From positions 94,306 through 158,305 of IMG/VR virus record IMGVR_UViG_3300028833_000073: DNA of 64,000 nucleotides; one strand, 5' to 3'. A model generated the notes under the pieces. It had not been told where the DNA came from and did not search any database. It was given only the letters and a program-made list of their open reading frames with translations. Position numbers and translations under genes: made by a program. Source of the DNA: a virus. Lineage: Duplodnaviria; Caudoviricetes. This document shows, piece after piece, positions 4,361 to 61,445 of this stretch (position 1 is its first letter; every line of letters begins with the position of its first letter).

Positions 4361-4951
4361 ATGTCTTTGATGGAAACGATAAAGAGATTTGGTAATACAG
4401 AAACATTTGTTACTGAGAGTATGGAGGTTGAGCTAGGACTAGAGGATGCTATCAATGAGTATTCAGGTCTAGCTGTTACTCCTACTAGGGTTGCATTCCC
4501 TGCTAGTCAGGTTCCTGTAGCAGAATTTGCTGATCCTAGTCTACCATGTAAATATGGTGTTTCGGCGGATATTTTTTCAATCTTTATGGAGCGTAATGGT
4601 CTAAAAGATATTCAAGAGGCTATGTCTACTATCGCTATGTCTAATGGTATTTCTTCTAAGGACATTATGCTTGTAATGGATAGTGATGATGTCATTAGGA
4701 GAACTATTGACGAAGCTAAGGTAGATCCTAATACTATCACTCGTAAAGAGAAGCTTACTAATATCGCTAAGGTTGGTAAGCTAATACAACATAGTAGAGA
4801 AACTGGAGTCTTTGTGGCTAAAGAGCCTAATGTAGAGAACCCTCCAGTATATCAAGTTCAATGGAATGACAATCCTAACATTGTCAACATTGAAAGAGAT
4901 ACTTGTGATCTTGGTCTATTTTCTGATGAGCGTCAGCTCACCTTCAAGTAA
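4361..4951 (+). CDS. Hypothetical late protein, possibly virion-associated
   Basis: AACT-caatgg-TA late-type promoter at 4321, AAAGGAGG RBS. Confidence 0.75.
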   Translation: MSLMETIKRFGNTETFVTESMEVELGLEDAINEYSGLAVTPTRVAFPASQVPVAEFADPSLPCKYGVSADIFSIFMERNGLKDIQEAMSTIAMSNGISSKDIMLVMDSDDVIRRTIDEAKVDPNTITRKEKLTNIAKVGKLIQHSRETGVFVAKEPNVENPPVYQVQWNDNPNIVNIERDTCDLGLFSDERQLTFK

Positions 4952-4954
4952 GCA

Positions 4955-5136
4955 ACAAACAATCTCCTACCAATACGGTAGGAGATTTATTTGCTAAGTT
5001 ATTATGTGAGAATTATATGAAAGGAGGTAATGCACATGAAAAACCATATGCGTAATGTGAGATAATGTTAGTTACGCAAACAAGTGTAACCGAAGTGTAC
5101 CCAAAGGAAAAGCTGAATTGCCCACAAGCTTACCTT
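4955..5136 (-). ncRNA. Putative sRNA, ACACUUGUUUGCGU-hairpin family (long form with anti-SD/AUG segment)
   Basis: Minus-strand AACA-aaataa-TA at 5147-5136; core 14-mer at 5074-5087; ends at hairpin 4961-4987. Confidence 0.6.
4961..4987. terminator. Bidirectional intrinsic terminator hairpin
   Basis: AATCTCCTACC-aatac-GGTAGGAGATT with T-rich tails on both strands. Confidence 0.75.
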
Positions 5137-5170
5137 ATTATTTTGTTATGACCAAAAAAATATATAGACA

Positions 5171-5198
5171 CATATTATATATGTGGTGGTATTGGGTA
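5171..5198 (+). promoter_or_regulatory. Early promoter plus conserved 16-nt leader GTGGTGGTATTGGGTA (copy 1 of 5)
   Basis: CATATTAT-atat-GTGGTGGTATTGGGTA; same leader at 33785-33770(-), 39201, 40471, 42251. Confidence 0.8.
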
Positions 5199-5226: not shown

Positions 5227-5961
5227 ATGGCCACGTATACAAGACTTGATATGCAATCACAGATATTTGAAGAAGGAGTTTTGAATATATTTACAGATGC
5301 CAGTATCAATCCCTTGGGAAATAATAAATGGGATGGATGTGCTGGTGCAATACCTGTAACTTATGATCATAAGATTAATAATCTTACGGAATATATACCG
5401 ATGATAAGAGTGTTTAGAGATTGCACTAATAATATTGCAGAACTTTCAGCCATAGAGATGGCATGTGAGTTTGCAGTAAGCAATCAATCTAAGTATGTCA
5501 GAATCAATCTCTTTAGTGATTCTGAGTATAGTATTAAGACGTTGAAAGAATGGATTTTTAATTGGGCCAAAGTATCATGCCGTGATGGTATTGAAGGCTT
5601 TAGAAATCTTAGAAAGAGTGATGGTAACTTAGTAAAAAATCATACCATCATCATAAATATTATCAACAAGATTTTGTCAATAGATCCTAGACAGTGTGGC
5701 TTTAATGTGTACCATGTAAAGGCTCACACTAACGGGGACAGTAAGAAAGTACAAGAGCAGTTTAAGAAAGCTAATAAGATATCTATTAATATCTTAGATG
5801 CTGATATCTTAGCTTACTACAATGACAAAGTAGATAATCTTACAAGAGATATCTTACTTAGCAATGAAAGTAGTTATTATGAGTGTGAGGTAGTACCATA
5901 TGCAATACTTCCTTATGCTTTTAATAAATATAAGAGAATTATAGGTTCAAGGAGGTTCTAG
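5227..5961 (+). CDS. rnhA: Ribonuclease HI
   Basis: IFTDAS, TNNIAELSAI, FSDSEY, HVKAH, NDKVDNL catalytic motifs. Confidence 0.92.
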   Translation: MATYTRLDMQSQIFEEGVLNIFTDASINPLGNNKWDGCAGAIPVTYDHKINNLTEYIPMIRVFRDCTNNIAELSAIEMACEFAVSNQSKYVRINLFSDSEYSIKTLKEWIFNWAKVSCRDGIEGFRNLRKSDGNLVKNHTIIINIINKILSIDPRQCGFNVYHVKAHTNGDSKKVQEQFKKANKISINILDADILAYYNDKVDNLTRDILLSNESSYYECEVVPYAILPYAFNKYKRIIGSRRF

Positions 5962-10793: not shown

Positions 10794-11333
10794 ATGATCT
10801 TAGTAATGAATAGTGAATTCTTCATTCAGAATATAAAGAATGATATGAAGATTATGGATAATTCATTTGTTCTTAGCTGGGATTCTCAGTTAACTCCAGA
10901 GGCAGCAGGATGTCCTATTTGGAGTAGTAGGCATCTTGTTCCTCCAGAGGGAATTAGTAATGACTATGATTATACTAATTACTTATACTTCAATGATAAG
11001 GCTATGGAGTTAATAGCTATCATTGGGTATATGATTAAGACGAATAACATAGTTATCATTCTCTCTAATGGTAATTATGCTGAAGACTTCCTATACATGT
11101 TCTTGAAGTTTATCCAGAACAGATATGGAATAGTGTATAGAGATGTGAAGTGTCTTGAAGATATTCCTGAAGTTCCAGGAGATACAGATAGCTTTAGCAT
11201 TCAAGGACTCTATAACTTCAATGCCTATGACAATAATAGAGTTGTTAGGTATATAGAGTCACTTAAGATATCTGATCCTGACTTTAGGATGTTCTTTGAA
11301 CAGAATCTGAATGAGAAAGCAGCAGAGCTATGA
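10794..11333 (+). CDS. Hypothetical protein
   Basis: GAGGTG RBS, operonic. Confidence 0.75.
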   Translation: MILVMNSEFFIQNIKNDMKIMDNSFVLSWDSQLTPEAAGCPIWSSRHLVPPEGISNDYDYTNYLYFNDKAMELIAIIGYMIKTNNIVIILSNGNYAEDFLYMFLKFIQNRYGIVYRDVKCLEDIPEVPGDTDSFSIQGLYNFNAYDNNRVVRYIESLKISDPDFRMFFEQNLNEKAAEL

Positions 11334-12121
11334 AGCTATATGAGAAGGTGAATTATACTCAAGATATAGCGCTCTTAAAGAATGCTAATATCTACGAGTA
11401 TGATATTGCTAAGGCTAATATATCTGTCCTCTTAAATAGGGGACAGATATCATCTTCTCTATATGACTTTCTTTTTAATCAAGACAATATGGTTAGAAAG
11501 ATCATGGTAGGTAATATGGAGAAGACTAATAAGAATCTTATTAAAGAGAAACAACAAGGTATCATTGATGCTAAGAAGTATCTCTTTGAAGCTAATCATA
11601 TAGATGATAACGAAGTTCTCTCGATAAAGAATGATGCTGTATTCGTTACAAGGGAACTAGATAAACTTGAGTATGGTAATGCTAGATTCACACTAAGGAA
11701 TAGATATAATCTCTTTATTAGAATCCTAAGATTACAATTCTTCTATCTTCTAGATCAAGTGAATGATATAGAGGTATTAGATATAAAGGGTATAAGAGAT
11801 GAGGTTATAGAGAAGCAAGAGGAGTATATGATTGACTTCATTAAGACTCTATTGTTTACCTTTAAGACAGAAGGATCTGATAAGACATTGCTCTTATTAA
11901 GAACATTCAATCATAATTATATGAATAAGAAGTTAGATATCAACTACTATAGGGACTTATACACAGGTAAGTTCCCATTGAATACAGATAGTGTAGTCTT
12001 TTCATATAATGCAGATGCTCTTAGTCAAGACCTTGTAGATTCTGTCGATATAGTAAACAATGGATCATTCCTTAGAGCTATATCGAAAGTATTCTATACT
12101 GAGTATCTTAGGCAGAAATGA
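11330..12121 (+). CDS. Small family-B DNA polymerase palm-like protein
   Basis: IYEYDIAKANISVL resembles motif A; LSIKNDAVF resembles motif C; only 263 aa. Confidence 0.5.
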   Translation: MKLYEKVNYTQDIALLKNANIYEYDIAKANISVLLNRGQISSSLYDFLFNQDNMVRKIMVGNMEKTNKNLIKEKQQGIIDAKKYLFEANHIDDNEVLSIKNDAVFVTRELDKLEYGNARFTLRNRYNLFIRILRLQFFYLLDQVNDIEVLDIKGIRDEVIEKQEEYMIDFIKTLLFTFKTEGSDKTLLLLRTFNHNYMNKKLDINYYRDLYTGKFPLNTDSVVFSYNADALSQDLVDSVDIVNNGSFLRAISKVFYTEYLRQK

Positions 12122-12156: not shown

Positions 12157-12258
12157 ACTAAATACCTCCCATCCGAAGATGGGAATAGTATCTAGCTCAA
12201 CGCAAACAAGTGTTGATTACTTTAGAAAGGATCGCTTACAGAAAAATACGTGCTGGCT
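12157..12258 (-). ncRNA. Putative sRNA, hairpin family, array unit 1
   Basis: AACA-taaaag-TA at 12269-12258; core 12200-12213; C(UUCG)G-capped 3' hairpin. Confidence 0.65.
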
Positions 12259-12284
12259 ACTTTTATGTTAGTACTATATCAAAG

Positions 12285-12383
12285 ACTAAATACCTCCCAT
12301 CCGAAGATGGGAGTAGTATCTAGCTCAACGCAAACAAGTGTTGATTACTTGAACATATTCCTGCCGAAAAAAATTCTTTGCAT
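12285..12383 (-). ncRNA. Putative sRNA, hairpin family, array unit 2
   Basis: AACA-taaaaa-TA at 12394-12383; core 12328-12341; C(UUCG)G-capped 3' hairpin. Confidence 0.65.
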
Positions 12384-12409
12384 ATTTTTATGTTAGCACT
12401 ATATTAAAG

Positions 12410-12513
12410 ACTAAATATCTCCCATCCAAAGATGGGAGTATATCTAGTTCTAACGCAAACAAGTGTTAGATGAACGAACCAAAGTTATGATTTCTCACCC
12501 ATGAGTAATCCCC
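12410..12513 (-). ncRNA. Putative sRNA, hairpin family, array unit 3
   Basis: AACA-atataa-TG at 12524-12513; core 12453-12466 with changed but paired stem; C(UUUG)G-capped 3' hairpin. Confidence 0.65.
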
Positions 12514-12526
12514 ATTATATTGTTAT

Positions 12527-12637
12527 AAAGAAATTAAAAGTTACAGGACCTCCATCCTGCAACTTTTAATTTTTGGTGTATCAGCAATGACTAAAATAAC
12601 CACAGAGAAGAACTATCATTTTCTGCTCTATAGCTAT
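12527..12637 (-). ncRNA. Putative ~110-nt sRNA without the family core
   Basis: AACA-ctatag-TA at 12648-12637; long hairpin at 12531-12572. Confidence 0.4.
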
Positions 12638-12646
12638 ACTATAGTG

Positions 12647-13138
12647 TTACCAATCTGTATCTATATCAACTTCTTTTTCTTTTTTAGCCTTTGGTTTAAA
12701 GTCCTTATGAGTAACATTCTTCTCTGAGTTAAAGTTGGCTACATATACAGTTACTAAGTAGAAGATCTTCTCTGCTAGTAATTCAGTAAAGTACTCTTCT
12801 GAATAGCATAGATATATCTTCTTCTTAAGGGTAGTTGATAGTCTATTTGATACAATATTGGTTATATCCTTACGAATAGTATCTTCTCTTTCTTTATTGA
12901 TGAAATCAAGTCCTGTATCAGGAACTATATTATACATCACATAGTCATTAAGACAGTCATCAAGAAACTCATTTATGAAATTATTCACATCTTCCTTTGA
13001 GTCTTTATATCTAAAATCAGATATAGCTCTAAACTCATCGGTCTTTGTTGCACTATCTAGAACGTCTATATATCTCTTAAGTAGATACAATGCAACTATA
13101 GCTAGAATTACATAGATATATTCAAGCAACTTACTCAC
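12647..13138 (-). CDS. Membrane-anchored hypothetical protein
   Basis: N-terminal hydrophobic helix YIYVILAIVALYLL. Confidence 0.75.
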   Translation of the reverse strand: MSKLLEYIYVILAIVALYLLKRYIDVLDSATKTDEFRAISDFRYKDSKEDVNNFINEFLDDCLNDYVMYNIVPDTGLDFINKEREDTIRKDITNIVSNRLSTTLKKKIYLCYSEEYFTELLAEKIFYLVTVYVANFNSEKNVTHKDFKPKAKKEKEVDIDTDW

Positions 13139-31976: not shown

Positions 31977-32248
31977 CATGTTTGTTCACGTAAGATGGTT
32001 AAACTTACGCCGTCTTAATGTAAAGACTGCTATATGTCACCATATAGATCAGACTATATCACATACTCATATGAGTATCTTAGTATTTCGAGTCACCAAT
32101 TGACCCTACGTCTTTCGACTAGTCGTTGAACCTTCACATCCTTTCTAGGATTAGCTCGGCTGCTGATTGTCTTATCATATGATAAGAGTTTCCAGCAATT
32201 AACTAAGTTTTTCCATATAGAGTCACCTCTATAGGCCCCGCGCAGTTC
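31977..32248 (-). mobile_element. Group I intron (272 nt, ORF-less) inserted in NRNP|TL
   Basis: P1 CCCU/GGGG; P AAUUGCUGGAAA, Q AAUCAGCAG, R GUUCAACGACUA, S GAUAUAGUCU; terminal G at 31977. Confidence 0.92.
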
Positions 32249-33700
32249 AGGGTTACGATTAATTATGAATGGGATCCCGTTTTCGTTTGCTTTGATAATG
32301 TAGTTAACGATCTTCCATACACGATCATCATAATCCGTATAGGCTTTATCAAAGACTGCTTTAGCAGTATGCATAGCCATACCATAAGTATTATGGAGGA
32401 TATTGATAATCGCATGTTCAAGAAGCTTAACCAATGCCTTAAACGGCAACTTGATCTGATCAGTTCTAAGAGTCCAGTTAGGTACAATAACAGCTCTGCA
32501 ACTGAAATTATACCGGCCACCATACAGTGACCTAATAATACCTTTCTTAGAACTCATGATCTTGATTACTTCATCATAAATCTCCATGAGATTAAACTGA
32601 AGATCATAGAGTAATTGATTGCGGGTCTTCTTAGACCTGCGTCCTTTTATTGATTCTTTATGATTGATGATAGCTCCGAGCATAGCCATGATATTAAAGT
32701 ACTTATTCGTATCCTGGAATGCAAACTTATCACCATTAAGATGATATGGACGCAAGAGAGTAGTAAACACAGGAATACTATGAGTGAATACTTTTTCTCT
32801 ATCGTGCATGATATCATCATATACATCTTTCTTATTTGGATTCATCTTAAGATAATAGTCCATGATCTCATCGAAGTTCTCATAGAACCCCAACATTCCA
32901 TAATCATAGTACTTATCTAAATCTCCTCTTTCTACTTGGATAGAAAATCCATTCTCATCCTTTTCATCCTTTGGATCAAGAATACCTGTGAGTGCTGCCT
33001 TACCAATAAAGAACTCAATAGACTTATACAATCCTGGATGTATCACATAGTCATCATCCAGAATAATCCATCCAGTAATCTTGAAATCATCATTCTTCTT
33101 CACTACCTTCTTACCACAGATAGGACAGATAGTTCCTTCATTCTGTTGGTTCTTAGTAGCTCCACACGGACAAGTATATCTAGTTCCATAAGAACTAGCA
33201 TCATCAAATGTAGGACCAAACAAAGGAGAATAGATTGAGTTAGGTTCTTTGATATCCTTCTTAACTCCTTGAGGTTTCTCGATACGGATTCCTTTACCTT
33301 TACCAAAGTCTTCCATCCGTTCTTCATCAAGATTGATTCTTTCAATCCATGTTCTATATTCATATTTATTACTGTGAGGATACGATGAGTCTTTATCATC
33401 CACTGGAATGGGAGCTTTAGCTACTATTGCTTTTACTACTTCATATGGATTTGCAAGAGATTCTGCTAATCCAGTTCTAAGAAGATTATTAACTTCTTCT
33501 TTCCTTTTATTGAAGTTGCTTATTCCCCTCCATTTATCCTCAACTTTGAAATTCTTATAGTTGGATCCTTCAGTGGGAACAACCATAGAAAAGTGTCTTT
33601 CCTTTGGATAGTCCTTTAGCATTGATTCTCTTTGCTCTCCATGGAAATACTCTATTTTGCTTCCAACTGTAGGTACCACCTTAGAAAACTTCTTTTCCAT
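32249..33700 (-). CDS. RNAP beta' N-terminal subunit, exon 1 (spliced product 605 aa; probably non-virion RNAP)
   Basis: CPCG...CPICG zinc finger, KKGIIRSLYGGRYNFSCRAVIVP, INRNP; early promoter. Confidence 0.92.
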
Positions 33701-39242: not shown

Positions 39243-40412
39243 ATGAGTGTATTTAACAACAACGAAGCAAAAAAGAACTATGATGAGAATGGTAACTGGT
39301 GTACTGATTATGAGAATATGGAGGTATCATTTGACAAGTTACGTATTCCGGAAAATGAAAAAGATTTTATGAGATTTCATAAAAGATTTATGAAAGAATG
39401 TGGAGCATTTGTAGAAGGAATGACAAGGATTCCTAATAAGGTAATTTGGAGTCAGCCTTCTATGGAAGAAGAATATGAAAAAGGACCTATTCTTGAAGGT
39501 TATGAAGAATGGTCCAAAGAAGGTGATGAAGAAGAAGAAGATGATGATGAGACAGAGTATTATCAGATTATCTTTGGTAAGTATCCAACAATGAATGACA
39601 AAGTACTTTATTATGATAGACCAATACTTATAGCAACATTTCCTATTCCTTCATTACCTGATAAACATGCTGCAATGATGATCACCAGCATTGGTAATAA
39701 GAAGGTGGACAGATATGATGCTATTCTGAAAGATTGGAAAGAAGAAGGACTTAAAAAGAAATCTGCTGCAAAGTGTGACTCAATAAGATCTTTGGATATG
39801 ATAAAGGTAAGAAGGCATGTAGGTTTTCTTACTATGAGAGATGTTGTTACTGTAACTAATAAGATTTTTCTGTTTCAGAAAGAAGCATTTAATAATCCAT
39901 GGAACTTCCTTAACTGGTGTATCATGGTCAATGTTACTAATAGTGTAGGTGAGGGTAAAAACAATATTCAGAAGATCAAGTCTTTGGAAGATATTTCAAA
40001 TAATCATGATGCAAACTGTGTTGATATTGCAATAGCGGTTTATCAGATCTGTAAGTCTGCAAAAATTGACGCAACAATCGGATGGGTTAAGTTTATTTAT
40101 AATGAACACAAGACAAGAGGTCATCTTTTCTGTGTCTTTAAACATAAAGGAGCGATCTATAGTTTCCAATATATTCCTGATATTCCTTTGTGCCGTATTG
40201 AAAAATATGATGATAAGGAATATATCGAGGTAATTAAGAAAGAAGGAGATATTATTCATTCTTATATTGATAAACATGAAAAGGCTGAATCTGATGTAAG
40301 ATATTATGAGTTTGATAAGAGTGATCTTAAGAAGTGTACTGATACTGTATATCTTAAGACACATAACCAGAGACAGTTTCTTGATAGTGTTTGGCCAGAT
40401 ACTGTAGTCTGA
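39243..40412 (+). CDS. PemK/MazF-like domain fused to transglutaminase-like (Cys-His) domain, with acidic N-terminal region
   Basis: RPILI...ITS...DWKEEGLKKKSAAKCDSIRSLD...VGFL; ANCVDIA...GHLFCVF. Confidence 0.62.
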   Translation: MSVFNNNEAKKNYDENGNWCTDYENMEVSFDKLRIPENEKDFMRFHKRFMKECGAFVEGMTRIPNKVIWSQPSMEEEYEKGPILEGYEEWSKEGDEEEEDDDETEYYQIIFGKYPTMNDKVLYYDRPILIATFPIPSLPDKHAAMMITSIGNKKVDRYDAILKDWKEEGLKKKSAAKCDSIRSLDMIKVRRHVGFLTMRDVVTVTNKIFLFQKEAFNNPWNFLNWCIMVNVTNSVGEGKNNIQKIKSLEDISNNHDANCVDIAIAVYQICKSAKIDATIGWVKFIYNEHKTRGHLFCVFKHKGAIYSFQYIPDIPLCRIEKYDDKEYIEVIKKEGDIIHSYIDKHEKAESDVRYYEFDKSDLKKCTDTVYLKTHNQRQFLDSVWPDTVV

Positions 40413-48941: not shown

Positions 48942-51326
48942 ATGGTAAAGAAAGAAGTAAATAAATTGGTTCTAAGAGATCCAATAGAAGTTAATATTGT
49001 GGACCAAATAAGAAAGGATATGGAAGCATATGCAGAAGAAGTAGTATCTAATCGAGCGGTTGTATCTATATATGGCTTTAAACCAGTTCATATGCTACTG
49101 CTCTATTGTGCTTATGCTACTACTGGATTGACTCAAAGGACAAAGAAATGTGCTAGGTTGATTGGTGATATGTTAGGTATTTATCATCCTCATGGTGATG
49201 TATCTACATATGATGCCATATTGACTTTAGTAAATTGGTATGATTGTTATATGCCATTGTTTAAGAAGCAGGGTAACTTTGGGAACTATCAAGGTGATGG
49301 TCCTGCTTCGTATAGGTATACAGAAACCATGTTGACACCTTTTGCAATGGATTGTGTAATTGGTGATTTGACTAAGACTGATCAGGTTGTAGACTGGATT
49401 AAGAACTATGATGAATCCGCTAAGCAGCCTGTATTCTTACCACTCAAAGTTCCTCTTCTCTTGATTAATGGTACTGATGGAATTGCAGTAGGGATGAAGG
49501 CGGATATACCTAGCCATAACATTACTGAGGTTCTTGATGCTACTATCAATCTTATTGATGATCCTAACTATCAGGTTGTATTAATACCTGATCATTGTAT
49601 GCCTTGTGAGATAGTAGATACTAACTGGAAAGCTATCTCTAATAAAGGTGATGGTAAATATATAGTGAGAGGAGTAATAGAACAAGGAACATATCAAGGA
49701 TATCCAGCTTTGTTTGTGAAGTCCCTTCCGAATAAGACTAGATGGAATCCTATTCAAAAGGCTATAGAGGAACTGAAGTTTACACAGCTTCCTCAGATTC
49801 TATCTATTCATGAAGACTGCAAACCTGATAAGATCAATTGCATAATTAAGTTTAGGAGAGGTACAGATCTTAACTATGCTCAACAGATGATCTATAAGAA
49901 GACTAATCTTCAGAAATCTTTTAGGGTTAACTTTGAGATCTATAATCCTATAACTCATAGCATTGATCAGTTCTCATATAAGTCTTATCTGCAATTCTTC
50001 ATTGAGTTCAGAAAGACTACTCTTTTTAGACTCTATACTAGTCTCTATCAGAATAAGACTACTAAGATACATGCTCTTGGGATGTATATAGATCTCTCTC
50101 ATAACCAGAACCTTCACAATATCATCCTAGACTTAGAGAAGAATAAGAATAGAGATGATAATGAGATGGTAGATTATCTGGTGAAGAAGTATAAGCTTAC
50201 AGACCTACAAGCATCCTTTGCAATCCATAATGACTTGACTAAGATTTCTCCATATCATATCAAGAAGATGGAAGCTGAATTAGCTATTCTTGTTAAAGAA
50301 TCTGATGAGTTATATCGTAAGATTGTTGATGAGAATGAATTAGTTAAGGATCTTAGAGCAGATCTTGTTAGGATTAGGGAGAAGTATAAGCAACCTAGAA
50401 GATGTAAGATAATCAAAGAGTCAGTAGTGACTGGTATTCCTGAGGGAATGTTTAAGATTATCATTACTGAGAATAACTTTATCTGTAAGATTGATGCTAA
50501 GAGAGAAAATCTTCCTAAGTTTAGGAATGATAAACCTAAGTATATCTTGAAGGCAGATAATACAGATAAGTTAGTCATCTTTGATAGTGCTGGTAAGTCA
50601 TATAAACTACCAGTAAACTCAGTCACTCTTCATGATAATCGTAGTAATGGATTGGATATAAGGATTCTCGTAAAGGATCTTACATCATCTATTGTATCTA
50701 TGATATCAGAAGAGAGATTGAAAGCATTTGCTAAGAAGATCAATCCTAACTACTTCTTAACTTGTATATCAAGAGCAGGATTGATTAAGAAGATGGATTT
50801 GAATGATATCGTAACTGCATCTGCTAAGTCATCTACTTATATGAAATTAGATGATGGAGATGTAGTACAGGATATTATGATTATCCCAGATACATCAGAC
50901 ATTATAGTCTATAGTAAGAATAAAGCTCTTAGGTTTGGTATGGATCAAGTACCACTCTTTAGGAAACAAGCTAAGGGTAATATCTCTATGAATACAGACT
51001 ATATTGATGGTGTATCTATCATCACTAGAAATACTACAGACATTGTGATCATTACTGACAAGGGATATGTTAATAGATTCAATGAACTTGGATTTACAAA
51101 GACAGATAGAGCTAAAGCAGGATCTAAGGTTATTAAGCTTCATAAGGATGACTTTATTAAATTTATCTATGGAGTCAATATCAGAGATTCTCTTAGAGTG
51201 ATATCTAACTCTATAGACAAAACCTTCCCAGTAATAGATATTCCTGAGGGTAGTAGTGTATCTCCAGGTACTAAGCTGATTCCTACTAGGGAAATTGTCT
51301 TAAGATGTAGTGTAGTAAAGAACTAA
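48942..51326 (+). CDS. gyrA: Type IIA topoisomerase subunit A (GyrA/ParC-like)
   Basis: GFKPVH, YHPHGD, QGNFG, ASYRYTE (catalytic Tyr), LLINGTDGIAVGM; C-terminal pinwheel-like repeats. Confidence 0.93.
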   Translation: MVKKEVNKLVLRDPIEVNIVDQIRKDMEAYAEEVVSNRAVVSIYGFKPVHMLLLYCAYATTGLTQRTKKCARLIGDMLGIYHPHGDVSTYDAILTLVNWYDCYMPLFKKQGNFGNYQGDGPASYRYTETMLTPFAMDCVIGDLTKTDQVVDWIKNYDESAKQPVFLPLKVPLLLINGTDGIAVGMKADIPSHNITEVLDATINLIDDPNYQVVLIPDHCMPCEIVDTNWKAISNKGDGKYIVRGVIEQGTYQGYPALFVKSLPNKTRWNPIQKAIEELKFTQLPQILSIHEDCKPDKINCIIKFRRGTDLNYAQQMIYKKTNLQKSFRVNFEIYNPITHSIDQFSYKSYLQFFIEFRKTTLFRLYTSLYQNKTTKIHALGMYIDLSHNQNLHNIILDLEKNKNRDDNEMVDYLVKKYKLTDLQASFAIHNDLTKISPYHIKKMEAELAILVKESDELYRKIVDENELVKDLRADLVRIREKYKQPRRCKIIKESVVTGIPEGMFKIIITENNFICKIDAKRENLPKFRNDKPKYILKADNTDKLVIFDSAGKSYKLPVNSVTLHDNRSNGLDIRILVKDLTSSIVSMISEERLKAFAKKINPNYFLTCISRAGLIKKMDLNDIVTASAKSSTYMKLDDGDVVQDIMIIPDTSDIIVYSKNKALRFGMDQVPLFRKQAKGNISMNTDYIDGVSIITRNTTDIVIITDKGYVNRFNELGFTKTDRAKAGSKVIKLHKDDFIKFIYGVNIRDSLRVISNSIDKTFPVIDIPEGSSVSPGTKLIPTREIVLRCSVVKN

Positions 51327-59526: not shown

Positions 59527-59659
59527 CGTAGAGGTAGGGGTAATATAGCTTGATATTCGCCACTAGTAGTCTGATTTGCATTCGATTCAAAGACTACTGA
59601 TAATTAGAGAAGATGGTTGGTGGCCATCTTCCTTTTTATCACTTTTGTAACACTTTAGT

Positions 59660-59815
59660 AAGAGAATGCGAATTCATTCTCCTTCTTCTGGACTTAGGTA
59701 CACTTGTTTGCGTGCCTAGCTAATTTTGGGATTTTTTCATTGTTGATCTTCCTTTCTTAACATTATAATCAATTACCTCTTCCTTATACCCTACCGTAAG
59801 GTAGGGTATCTTTTT
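59660..59815 (+). ncRNA. Putative sRNA, ACACUUGUUUGCGU-hairpin family (long form with anti-SD/AUG segment)
   Basis: AACA-ctttag-TA at 59649-59660; 5' hairpin GAGAAUG..CAUUCUC; core 59700-59713; terminator 59786-59815. Confidence 0.65.
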
Positions 59816-59854
59816 CTAATTCTATCGAAACTTGATGATATGGGGTGATACATA

Positions 59855-60955
59855 ATGAGAGGTACGTTTGTTGAAGCTCATATAGCAGATATACACTTTG
59901 GAGCATTAGATCCTAGTGTACAGTATAAATTATTACACGAGCAATTTATTAGTAAGATTATAGATATACCATTGGATATAATCTCCATTAATGGAGATTT
60001 GTTTGATAAGAAGTTTATGGCAAACTCAGATGTCATAACTTATGCAACTAAGTTCATAGCTGACTTAGTAGAGATATGTAAGATGAAAGGATCTACTCTG
60101 ATTCTTATAGAAGGAACAGAGAGTCATGATGCACATCAATTGAATAGCTTCTATCATTACAATGGATTAGATGCTGATGTAAGAATAATAGAGAGTGCAA
60201 ATTTCATAAATGTAAGAGGGAAAGAGATACTATGTTTACCTGAAGAGTATGGTAAGGGATATGAGTATTATAGATCTCTATTTGCTAATAGAGAGTATGA
60301 TGCTTGTTATCTCCATGGTACTATTGTAGGTAGTATCTTTGGAAAGTCTGTACCGAATCTTAATAGTGATAGAGAACCTATATTCTCTATAGAGAATTTC
60401 TGGAGATGTAAAGGTCCTATCATATGTGGTCATGTACATGTGGCTGGTTGTTATAATAGTCACATCTACTATAGTGGAAGCCCATTAAGATGGAGATTTG
60501 GAGAAGAACAAGAGAAAGGATTCTTCTTACTCTGTCATAATTTGGATACTCAAGAATACTATATGCATTTCAATCCAGTGGTATCATTTAGATATGATAC
60601 ATTGGATTTAGATGAGATACTTCTTAGTGATCCTAAGGATATAATCAACTACCTAGACAATCTCAAAGCTAATGGAGTTGATCATATCAAGTTAAAGGTA
60701 AGGAAGTACACTGATGTACTACCGATACTTAGAGATTATTACAGTACTAAGAAATGGATGGTGATAGAAGATAAGAGTAGATTAGAGAAGGTTATGGAAG
60801 AAAATGATAATAACCTTAAACAGTATGAAGGATTATCATTCTTGAATGATCCTAGTATAGATGAATATACTAAATTCGTGATGTATGTAAACCATTACGA
60901 AGGAGAAGGATTCATTACTATAGAGAAGCTTAAGGAGTTGATTACTAATGTCTGA
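59855..60955 (+). CDS. SbcD/Mre11-like metallophosphoesterase nuclease
   Basis: ADIH, GDLFD, GTESHD, HG, GHVH, YSGSP motifs. Confidence 0.88.
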   Translation: MRGTFVEAHIADIHFGALDPSVQYKLLHEQFISKIIDIPLDIISINGDLFDKKFMANSDVITYATKFIADLVEICKMKGSTLILIEGTESHDAHQLNSFYHYNGLDADVRIIESANFINVRGKEILCLPEEYGKGYEYYRSLFANREYDACYLHGTIVGSIFGKSVPNLNSDREPIFSIENFWRCKGPIICGHVHVAGCYNSHIYYSGSPLRWRFGEEQEKGFFLLCHNLDTQEYYMHFNPVVSFRYDTLDLDEILLSDPKDIINYLDNLKANGVDHIKLKVRKYTDVLPILRDYYSTKKWMVIEDKSRLEKVMEENDNNLKQYEGLSFLNDPSIDEYTKFVMYVNHYEGEGFITIEKLKELITNV

Positions 60956-61445
60956 AGAAAGAGGAGATAAACAATACTTAGTTCATACAGTATGGCATGG
61001 AGGTAATCCTAGAAATAATTGGTATTTAATTAGAGCTAATTATAAAGCCGAGGCTATGAAGAAGTTATATTTATTTCTTGATAAGCACCATATTGCAAAC
61101 AGACATTCATACTTTTTTGAATTATGCTATTGCTTAGATATTACTGATGGATGGCCATGTGGCGAAGGAGGATTTCAGCTAGATTGGTGTGGAGATTATA
61201 GTCTTGGTGATATAGTTGTTGCAATATATAATGTCGATGATGAAAAGGTTAAAAAGTTATTAGAACAACAAGGTCCTGGTTTTACTCAGACTAATGAGTA
61301 TGATGAATACAATTGTCCTGATATACCAGAAAATCACTATGAGACAGAAATAGAATTTTTATTAGATCTATATAATATAGATGGGCTTAAGAAGATTATT
61401 AGTAAGCTTGATAAAATATTTAAGGGGGAAAAGAAAAATGCTTAA
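60948..61445 (+). CDS. Hypothetical protein
   Basis: AAGGAG RBS. Confidence 0.7.
   Translation: MSEERGDKQYLVHTVWHGGNPRNNWYLIRANYKAEAMKKLYLFLDKHHIANRHSYFFELCYCLDITDGWPCGEGGFQLDWCGDYSLGDIVVAIYNVDDEKVKKLLEQQGPGFTQTNEYDEYNCPDIPENHYETEIEFLLDLYNIDGLKKIISKLDKIFKGEKKNA

Follow-up and report, generated by a model that had tools for sequence, protein, structure and literature searches.

A candidate late small RNA gene combining a shared hairpin with a mirror of a translation initiation region in a giant phage related to AR9

In a 64,000-nucleotide stretch of DNA from an uncultured giant phage related to Bacillus phage AR9 (hereafter the window, bases 94306-158305 of a 158,305-bp IMG/VR record whose completeness is put at 64% and whose G+C content is about 34%), we describe a locus, c4, that most likely specifies a non-coding RNA of about 180 nt. 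As predicted, this RNA would carry a short hairpin with an invariant loop, which we call the handle and which belongs to a family of eight copies in two phage records, followed by a segment that mirrors a strong translation initiation region and by an intrinsic terminator. We consider it probable that the RNA exists as drawn here. The complete mechanism that we propose, in which a late, terminator-bounded small RNA masks ribosome-binding sites, has in our judgement about an even chance of being correct.

Results

The coordinates of c4, of its parts and of the related units in the window are collected in Table 1. The c4 locus lies in a 275-nt gap, with the gene 4361..4951 on one side and an RNase H gene (5227..5961) on the other. 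Near and distant DNA searches with the c4 locus and with the array of units c1-c3 found no near relative among deposited phages, and protein-seeded searches of IMG/VR with two genes neighbouring c4 returned no relatives. The protein encoded at 11330..12121 is 27-32% identical to proteins of AR9/PBS1, BpSp, the Staphylococcus S6 group and Listeria LPJP1, all of them uracil-DNA jumbo phages. AR9 has two phage RNA polymerases; its early promoters are long AT-rich boxes containing TATATTAT, and its late promoters, according to Table S3 of Lavysh et al. (2017; PMC5312081), read AACA-N6-T(A/G) with the final base as the start. The late polymerase of AR9 reads its motif on the template strand, single-stranded and uracil-containing. 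In the present genome, the early promoter consensus is CTGACCAAA, 14 nt and then TATATTATA, with about 25 very clear copies. The RNase H gene at 5227 has its promoter at 5149-5178, a copy that departs from this consensus by one mismatch. Annotating presumed late genes with PHROG gave no result. Two other features of the window were recorded in passing. A group I intron lies at 32030-32258 on the minus strand (Rfam RF00028, 73 bits, E = 1e-16) and overlaps the 3' end of a long minus-strand ORF (32093..33700). A 389-aa protein encoded at 39243-40412 on the plus strand has a MazF-like domain (PHROG 1936, E = 1e-6) and is a candidate RNA-cleaving enzyme in a phage rich in small RNA units.

Table 1. 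Features of the c4 locus and of related units in the window
Feature	Position	Strand	Remarks
Predicted non-coding RNA, family member c4, about 180 nt	4950..5136	-	promoter box, fold, terminator
Bidirectional intrinsic terminator	4961..4987	.	called on both strands
Initiation-region mirror	5019..5045	-	anti-AAAAA, anti-AUG, 8-nt spacer, 10-nt CU-rich stretch
Local 8-bp hairpin around anti-AUG triplet	5032..5051	-	in minimum-energy and centroid structures (predicted)
9-codon frame MKNHMRNVR	5036..5065	+	most likely a by-product of the antisense module
Handle hairpin, loop ACUUGUUUGC	5070..5091	-	GUUAC/GUAAC stem plus one G.U pair
AR9-type late promoter box AACAAAATAATA	5136..5147	-	AACA-N6-TA; predicted start A5136
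Early promoter and conserved leader of RNase H gene 5227..5961	5149..5197	+	one-mismatch variant of TATATTAT box; divergent from c4
c1-c3, three tandem units	12157..12524	-	each with promoter box, variable 5' segment, handle, terminator
c5	59649..59820	+	promoter box, 5' hairpin, handle with U.G wobbles, SD + AUG-AAAAAA mirror, second CU-rich stretch, terminator

The initial annotation had drawn c4 as a minus-strand unit of about 180 nt behind an AACA-N6-TA box, and this outline is supported. The box is present at 5147-5136; as in AR9-type late units, the motif stands on the non-template strand with its last base as the start. Downstream of it the unit is gene-free and contains the handle hairpin and a terminator, and its RNA strand has no ORF of 20 aa or longer. 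The predicted RNA, which would contain the handle, the local hairpin around the anti-AUG triplet and the terminator, folds at -48.5 kcal/mol (z = -4.6 relative to shuffled sequences). Searches of Rfam gave no match to c4, either at the gathering threshold or at E <= 5. Hence c4 has the features of a stand-alone small RNA gene, namely its own predicted promoter, no ORF, an intrinsic terminator and a stable fold. The terminator is bidirectional and is predicted to serve two convergent units, ending the gene 4361..4951 in the plus direction and the c4 RNA in the minus direction. The genome has just two copies of its core, CCUACCGUA, one in the c4 and the other in the c5 terminator; a further copy is found in unit B of the phage contig L088 described below, and all three are in the orientation of the handle.

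As described initially, the exact 14-mer shared by the handle copies is found at 5074-5087 (plus strand), enclosed by a GUUAC/GUAAC stem. The c4 handle (5071-5090) has 5-bp arms and a 10-nt loop, and an extra G.U pair (5091/5070) forms in the minus-strand RNA. Five exact copies of the 14-mer fall within the window, where 0.11 would be expected with up to two mismatches allowed, and the remainder of the 158-kb record holds no further exact copy. A sixth copy, c6 at genome position 86087, has the same 12-nt core on a perfect but different 6-bp stem. Two more copies, 240 nt apart and with stems of 13 and 8 pairs, are present in L088 (IMGVR_UViG_3300028833_000179), a 57.8-kb metagenomic phage contig. 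The family therefore totals eight copies, six in this record and two in L088. The 12-nt core is invariant in all of them, with the closing C-G pair and the loop unchanged in 8/8, and the stems come in six different sequences: c1 and c2 have the same stem, while c4 and L088-A share the inner five pairs. In the stem alignment 84% of the cells are paired, seven of eight pairs vary on both sides, and none of 500 shuffles reaches the observed covariation score; at the inner five positions every cell is paired (40/40 over the eight copies). We defined the family by a 5-13 bp stem of free sequence that closes on C-G and carries the loop ACUUGUUUGC, a description that includes c4. A covariance model recovered exactly the 6+2 copies (E <= 2.5e-7), with no further match up to E = 10, and gave c4 a score of 39.6 bits (E = 1.5e-7).

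The reading frame of the 14-mer differs between copies, so the conservation acts at the nucleotide level, and a coding function of the 14-mer was rejected. A pseudoknot between the conserved loop and the 3' tail was dropped, none being seen by eye, as was a CRISPR repeat or an RNA anti-CRISPR repeat mimic, for here the stems vary freely and each unit comes with a promoter box and a terminator of its own. The loop finds no complementary sequence anywhere in the phage (158 kb available), so that its partner is more likely a protein or an RNA of the host. We regard the invariant loop as most likely a docking site for a conserved protein that is common to the family.

The family was followed into other genomes. 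When IMG/VR was scanned for the 14-mer and for two 16-mers, about 120 matches proved to be chance and L088 was the one true relative; an 18-mer scan of metagenome contigs returned the L088 contig alone. The early-promoter pattern, searched in IMG/VR, brought up five more small contigs of the clade besides L088; the handle is absent from four of these (whole records, by exact pattern and model) and from the fifth by pattern only. The early-promoter pattern gave scattered chance matches and no host clue in GTDB genomes. In AR9 and BpSp, the covariance model found no handle, and no array lies behind the homologue of gene 11330..12121. The comparative power of the family is small because it is known from two phage records only.

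Four independent lines of sequence evidence point to the orientation with the ACUUGUUUGC loop, which is the minus strand for c4, as the transcribed one. A late box AACA-N6-T(A/G) stands 42-51 nt upstream of the loop in all five window copies (c1-c5). With 169 such boxes in 316 kb, or about one per 1.9 kb per strand, this is not a matter of chance, and both L088 units have a late box with one mismatch. The sixth copy, c6, sits in handle orientation within a predicted early transcript. The terminators of the array (c1-c3) are called on the minus strand only and that of c5 on the plus strand only, again in handle orientation in both cases. Finally, c5 and L088-A form unbroken helices (of 8 and 13 pairs, respectively) only when read in handle orientation; on the other strand their wobble pairs turn into A.C mismatches. 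As for the late box itself, the motif carries little information. Of 92 sites with a purine at -2, 35 fall outside coding DNA or within the 3' ends of genes; permuted controls gave 9-23 of 77-111. In windows upstream of genes we counted 24 boxes in sense and 12 in antisense orientation (controls 8-18), a modest enrichment. A general promoter of the form TAACA-N6-TA was dropped, as it is not enriched. Sigma-70-type promoters on the plus strand inside the array occur at chance-level counts and are not expected for a phage with its own polymerases; they were also set aside.

The other members of the family show how the handle is deployed elsewhere. At the head of the array there is a fourth late-box unit (window 12530-12648, minus strand; AACACTATAGTA at 12648), which lacks a handle and ends at a bidirectional terminator (12535-12575). 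The predicted transcript of c6 (genome 85915-86200), located 8.2 kb before the window, starts from an early promoter with the high-information consensus. Its 5' and 3' ends form a perfect 14-bp stem that is followed by a U-tract in handle orientation, and it encloses a strong ribosome-binding site and a 34-aa ORF whose stop codon lies inside the handle hairpin, about 130 nt into the transcript. It also has a stretch able to pair in cis with its own ribosome-binding site. L088 uses the same early promoter as the present phage, with leaders that agree exactly over tens of bases, and the early promoter-leader cassettes of the two are nearly identical over at least 60 nt (L088 6996-7027 and 9471-9502), while the proteins sampled from the two phages have almost no similarity. 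From these sequences, it seems that regulatory cassettes are much more strongly conserved than genes, or move more readily.

Beyond the handle, the initial annotation had noted in c4 the complement of an initiation region at 5019-5045, and this segment is indeed present: the plus strand reads as a strong Shine-Dalgarno sequence, an 8-nt spacer and ATG AAA AAC C. The 10-nt stretch of the mirror matches the 3' tail of the 16S rRNA of low-GC Gram-positive bacteria. We asked how often a strict form of the pattern (Shine-Dalgarno hexamer, 4-10 nt, ATGAAA) occurs. Both strands of the 158 kb yield 14 matches, ten of which are real gene starts and two of which are c4 and c5; in 14 kb of L088 the pattern is found in the two handle units and nowhere else. 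The mirror thus recurs in all four dispersed late units (c4, c5 and both L088 units), which have in common a U-run, CAU, 6-8 nt and a CCUCC-like stretch. In c5, the mirror strand reads Shine-Dalgarno, 7 nt, ATG AAA AAA and, five codons further on, a stop, and in L088 the mirror lies 3' of the hairpin in one unit and 5' of it in the other. The peptides that the mirrors would encode are unrelated and have 9 (c4), 5 (c5), and 20 and 9 (L088) codons. On the sequence, the linkage of the handle with a ribosome-binding-site mirror is a property of the family, because the mirror recurs in the dispersed units and is otherwise rare.

Structure prediction places the CU-rich core in the open. In c4, the last 6-7 bases of the core are unpaired with a predicted probability of about 0.9, and the core is predicted to be unpaired in all four units. 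Like the seed of an anti-Shine-Dalgarno small RNA, it is predicted to be unpaired, is rich in C/U and is complementary to a Shine-Dalgarno sequence. In c4, the minimum-energy fold pairs the first bases of the CU-rich stretch with the 5' end of the same RNA, a pairing that the centroid structure lacks. The 8-mer AUUACCUC (RNA sense) is common to c4, c5 and c6 (window 5024-5031, window 59772-59779 and genome 86107-86114, respectively); its complement occurs 15 times in 158 kb, and these units supply three of the occurrences. Just one clear gene start, that of a 211-aa gene at genome position 44226, has the complement of AUUACCUC. The proposal that this segment is an antisense module was borne out in part: it recurs in other units and its CU-rich core is predicted to be open, whereas the anti-AUG triplet is predicted to lie within a hairpin and no target was found in the 158 kb.

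For c4, targets were sought by short-word BLAST, by duplex energies against called gene starts, by wobble-aware local alignment and by N-terminal peptide matching. Among the initiation regions of the phage (158 kb, 64% of the genome) there was no convincing target and no energy outlier. The energy rankings are weak because duplex folds allow very long loops and because the gene list was crude; it missed, for example, an 88-aa gene at genome position 76884. The search for gene starts matching 5019-5045, which had been suggested as a check, yielded none in the 158 kb and stayed at chance level in 401 sampled Bacillota genomes, with three scattered matches of 3 mismatches each. Neither the phage starts nor these 401 genomes thus offered c4 a target with extended or conserved complementarity. 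The best match of c4 is a perfect 12-nt stretch in the leader of a topoisomerase gene at 48942, and its CU-rich core pairs with generic ribosome-binding sites of the phage. A 15/16 match at genome position 78978 was rejected as a target, being internal to a gene.

For c5, the mirror strand (window 59720-59790, minus strand) aligns with small gaps to the leaders and starts of three phage genes (genome 76847-76888, genome 12695-12730 and window 60919-60975), one of which lies 1.2 kb downstream in the SbcD-like operon. The match to the early 88-aa gene at 76884 is perfect over 15 nt (E = 0.02) and continues over the start region with wobbles and a small bulge. As a sequence match, it is suggestive but not significant, because the initiation regions of the phage resemble one another.

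Discussion

The model that we infer from sequence anatomy, covariation, recurrence and strand logic is as follows. The c4 RNA would be made late in infection by the non-virion RNA polymerase of the phage, starting at A5136 directly behind the AACA-N6-TA box. From 5' to 3', it would consist of a 45-nt unique segment, the handle, an anti-AAAAA/anti-AUG segment at ribosomal spacing, the CU-rich stretch and the terminator. The exposed CU-rich stretch would pair with the Shine-Dalgarno sequences of messages that have strong initiation sites, and with well-matched targets the pairing would reach the start codon too. Such messages might be early phage messages or those of the host. Pairing would exclude 30S subunits, and the duplex may become exposed to RNases.

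Several other readings of the locus have to be weighed against this small-RNA model. The plus strand carries the 9-codon frame MKNHMRNVR at 5036-5065, followed by a stop, which the initial annotation had offered as a possible micropeptide with no evident phage promoter. Both remarks agree with what we found: upstream there is neither an early promoter consensus nor a clean late box, the sole plus-strand AACA-N6-TA (4958-4969) being inside the terminator stem. If the plus strand were the functional one, the strong mini-ORF would be translated as a micropeptide or leader, or would load ribosomes that stabilise or regulate a plus transcript. The near-ideal Shine-Dalgarno sequence, spacing and AAA second codon of all four units fit real ribosome loading, the stop of the 9-codon frame overlaps (TAATG) the start of a 28-codon frame that runs through the hairpin (5065..5151), and the mirror strand is co-directional with the flanking genes in c4, in c1-c3 and in both L088 units. 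Yet the 28-codon frame has no counterpart in the other units, the peptides are unrelated and span 5-20 codons, and the mini-frame of L088-B lies behind the hairpin rather than ahead of it. Moreover, the unit is flanked by a terminator on one side and, on the other, by the promoter that the next gene has for itself, which leaves no gene to be regulated; in c5, the mirror strand lacks both an upstream promoter and any downstream gene. On the mirror strand, furthermore, the helices of c5 and L088-A are broken and the array terminators have no U-tract. We regard a functional plus strand as quite unlikely, and a real 9-aa micropeptide is unlikely as well. A type I toxin-antitoxin pair, which would place a hydrophobic toxin of about 20-60 aa opposite the RNA, was rejected in view of the hydrophilic, unrelated mirror frames of 9, 5, 20 and 9 codons. 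A leader-peptide attenuator was rejected too: an early promoter that belongs to the RNase H gene lies between that gene and the hairpin, and no gene follows the c5 mirror. The mirror could also be an evolutionary footprint, the captured and inverted 5' end of a gene that does no pairing now, in a unit that serves as a terminator/insulator cassette or as a carrier of the hairpin. This would suit the alignment of the c5 mirror strand with the leaders and starts of several phage genes with small gaps, the near-identity of the cassettes in two phages whose sampled proteins are not alike, as though regulatory cassettes move, and the lack of a target found for c4. Against it, the mirror of Shine-Dalgarno sequence and AUG-AAA is undecayed in 4/4 dispersed units, although just ten gene starts in 158 kb match the pattern, the CU-rich core is predicted to be unpaired in all four units, and AUUACCUC is retained in three units of the family; we consider a footprint without function improbable.

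Two further readings move the function away from the released RNA. As a cis signal on nascent RNA, the hairpin would act on the phage polymerase much as nut or put sites do, affecting pausing, termination or anti-termination, and read-through of the terminator would yield long antisense RNAs over the upstream early genes (c4 and the array) or a late SbcD-like message (c5). Its fixed distance from the start (42-51 nt) and its place before a terminator, seen in every late unit of this genome, would agree with such a role, as would the existence of late antisense transcripts in AR9, the location of c5 just upstream of a same-strand gene (SbcD-like), and an identical core in two phages that share a promoter, which would suit a conserved transcription machinery. 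We nevertheless hold this reading to be distinctly improbable: the terminators are strong, the hairpin of c6, 130 nt downstream of an early start and at the close of a small ORF, does not suit a promoter-proximal signal, and the recurring mirror of an initiation region would be left unexplained. Finally, the conserved element might work as DNA, for instance by forming a cruciform or a hairpin promoter or by binding a protein. In its favour, AACA occurs in the loop on the mirror strand and in L088-B happens to complete an AACA-N6-TA box, and the AR9 polymerase reads single-stranded template DNA. However, such a box is completed in just one of the eight copies, the wobble-paired stems favour RNA, and all copies in this genome lie inside units bounded by promoter and terminator and on one consistent strand, which makes action at the DNA level highly improbable.

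Returning to the small-RNA model, the handle and the variable antisense segment could together form a programmable silencing system of the phage, with a conserved protein on the loop, the mirror as the guide and late shut-off as the outcome; this extension we consider fairly unlikely. More speculatively still, the loop shows 5'-UGUU-3', which is the template element of the AR9-type late polymerase, so these RNAs could bind and tune that polymerase. Such binding and tuning would resemble 6S RNA, which binds and tunes bacterial RNA polymerase. If the small-RNA model is true, the phage would have, in late small RNAs mirroring ribosome-binding sites, an RNA equivalent of the RegA and RegB proteins of phage T4, and the shared hairpin suggests an RNA-binding partner. 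The combination of a fixed handle with an exchangeable antisense segment would also be of interest for the design of translational silencers.

Comparison with known systems

AR9 makes late antisense transcripts, and the start at 75478(-) has a step height of 3757, the highest among the late promoters examined, and the class 'antisense' in Table S3 of the published data (PMC5312081). In the AR9 sequence (KU878088.1), the region of about 75400-75478 (-) contains no gene, has UCCUCC near the 5' end of the RNA and has a terminator about 70 nt downstream of the start. A second start, 115851(+), would give an RNA of about 85 nt (115851-115940) with CCCCUC and a terminator. Neither is annotated as an RNA gene in the KU878088.1 record, and Lavysh et al. 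(2017; PMC5312081) term both RNAs antisense transcripts without discussing what they do. Judged by these published data, AR9-type phages do make abundant late gene-free RNAs with anti-Shine-Dalgarno stretches, and the present analysis would offer a functional reading for AR9's most abundant late 'antisense' start. Like c4, the two AR9 RNAs are gene-free, driven by AACA-N6-T(A/G) and encoded by a uracil-DNA jumbo phage with its own RNA polymerases; like c4, they are short, with a C-rich anti-Shine-Dalgarno stretch and an intrinsic terminator, and lie between genes, opposite to their neighbours. Unlike c4, they measure about 75-85 nt, have neither the handle hairpin nor an anti-AUG segment, and show no sequence similarity to it.

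A second likeness is found in bacteria. In low-GC Gram-positives, small RNAs such as RoxS/RsaE and, in Listeria, LhrC1-5 use unpaired C/U-rich motifs that pair with Shine-Dalgarno regions and block initiation. These families are multi-copy and include tandem genes with their own promoter and terminator, LhrC1-5 among them with a tandem array, and the RNAs are modular, built of a seed and a structured scaffold. The c4 family shares with them the C/U-rich seed, the tandem multi-copy units and the build of seed plus scaffold. It is not homologous to them (no Rfam match at E <= 5), and differs in being phage-encoded, in having a putative promoter for a phage polymerase and in a mirror that runs through the start codon and the second codon. 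Its signature, moreover, is an invariant 10-nt loop on free stems and not a conserved C-rich loop. Taken together, these comparisons lead us to conclude that c4 probably acts in the way of the late AR9 RNAs and of the Gram-positive C-rich small RNAs with anti-Shine-Dalgarno seeds, and that by sequence it belongs to no described family.

For the handle itself, the closest parallels in form are the T4 gp43 operator and the coat-protein hairpin of MS2/R17, in which a free stem and a fixed loop stand for sequence-specific recognition by a protein. The handle likewise has a short stem of free sequence and a fixed loop. Those operators act in cis on the message that they regulate and overlap its ribosome-binding site, whereas the handle is carried on separate RNAs and is in cis only in c6. 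What c4 adds to the class of late anti-Shine-Dalgarno RNAs is the handle hairpin together with a full mirror that extends through the start codon.
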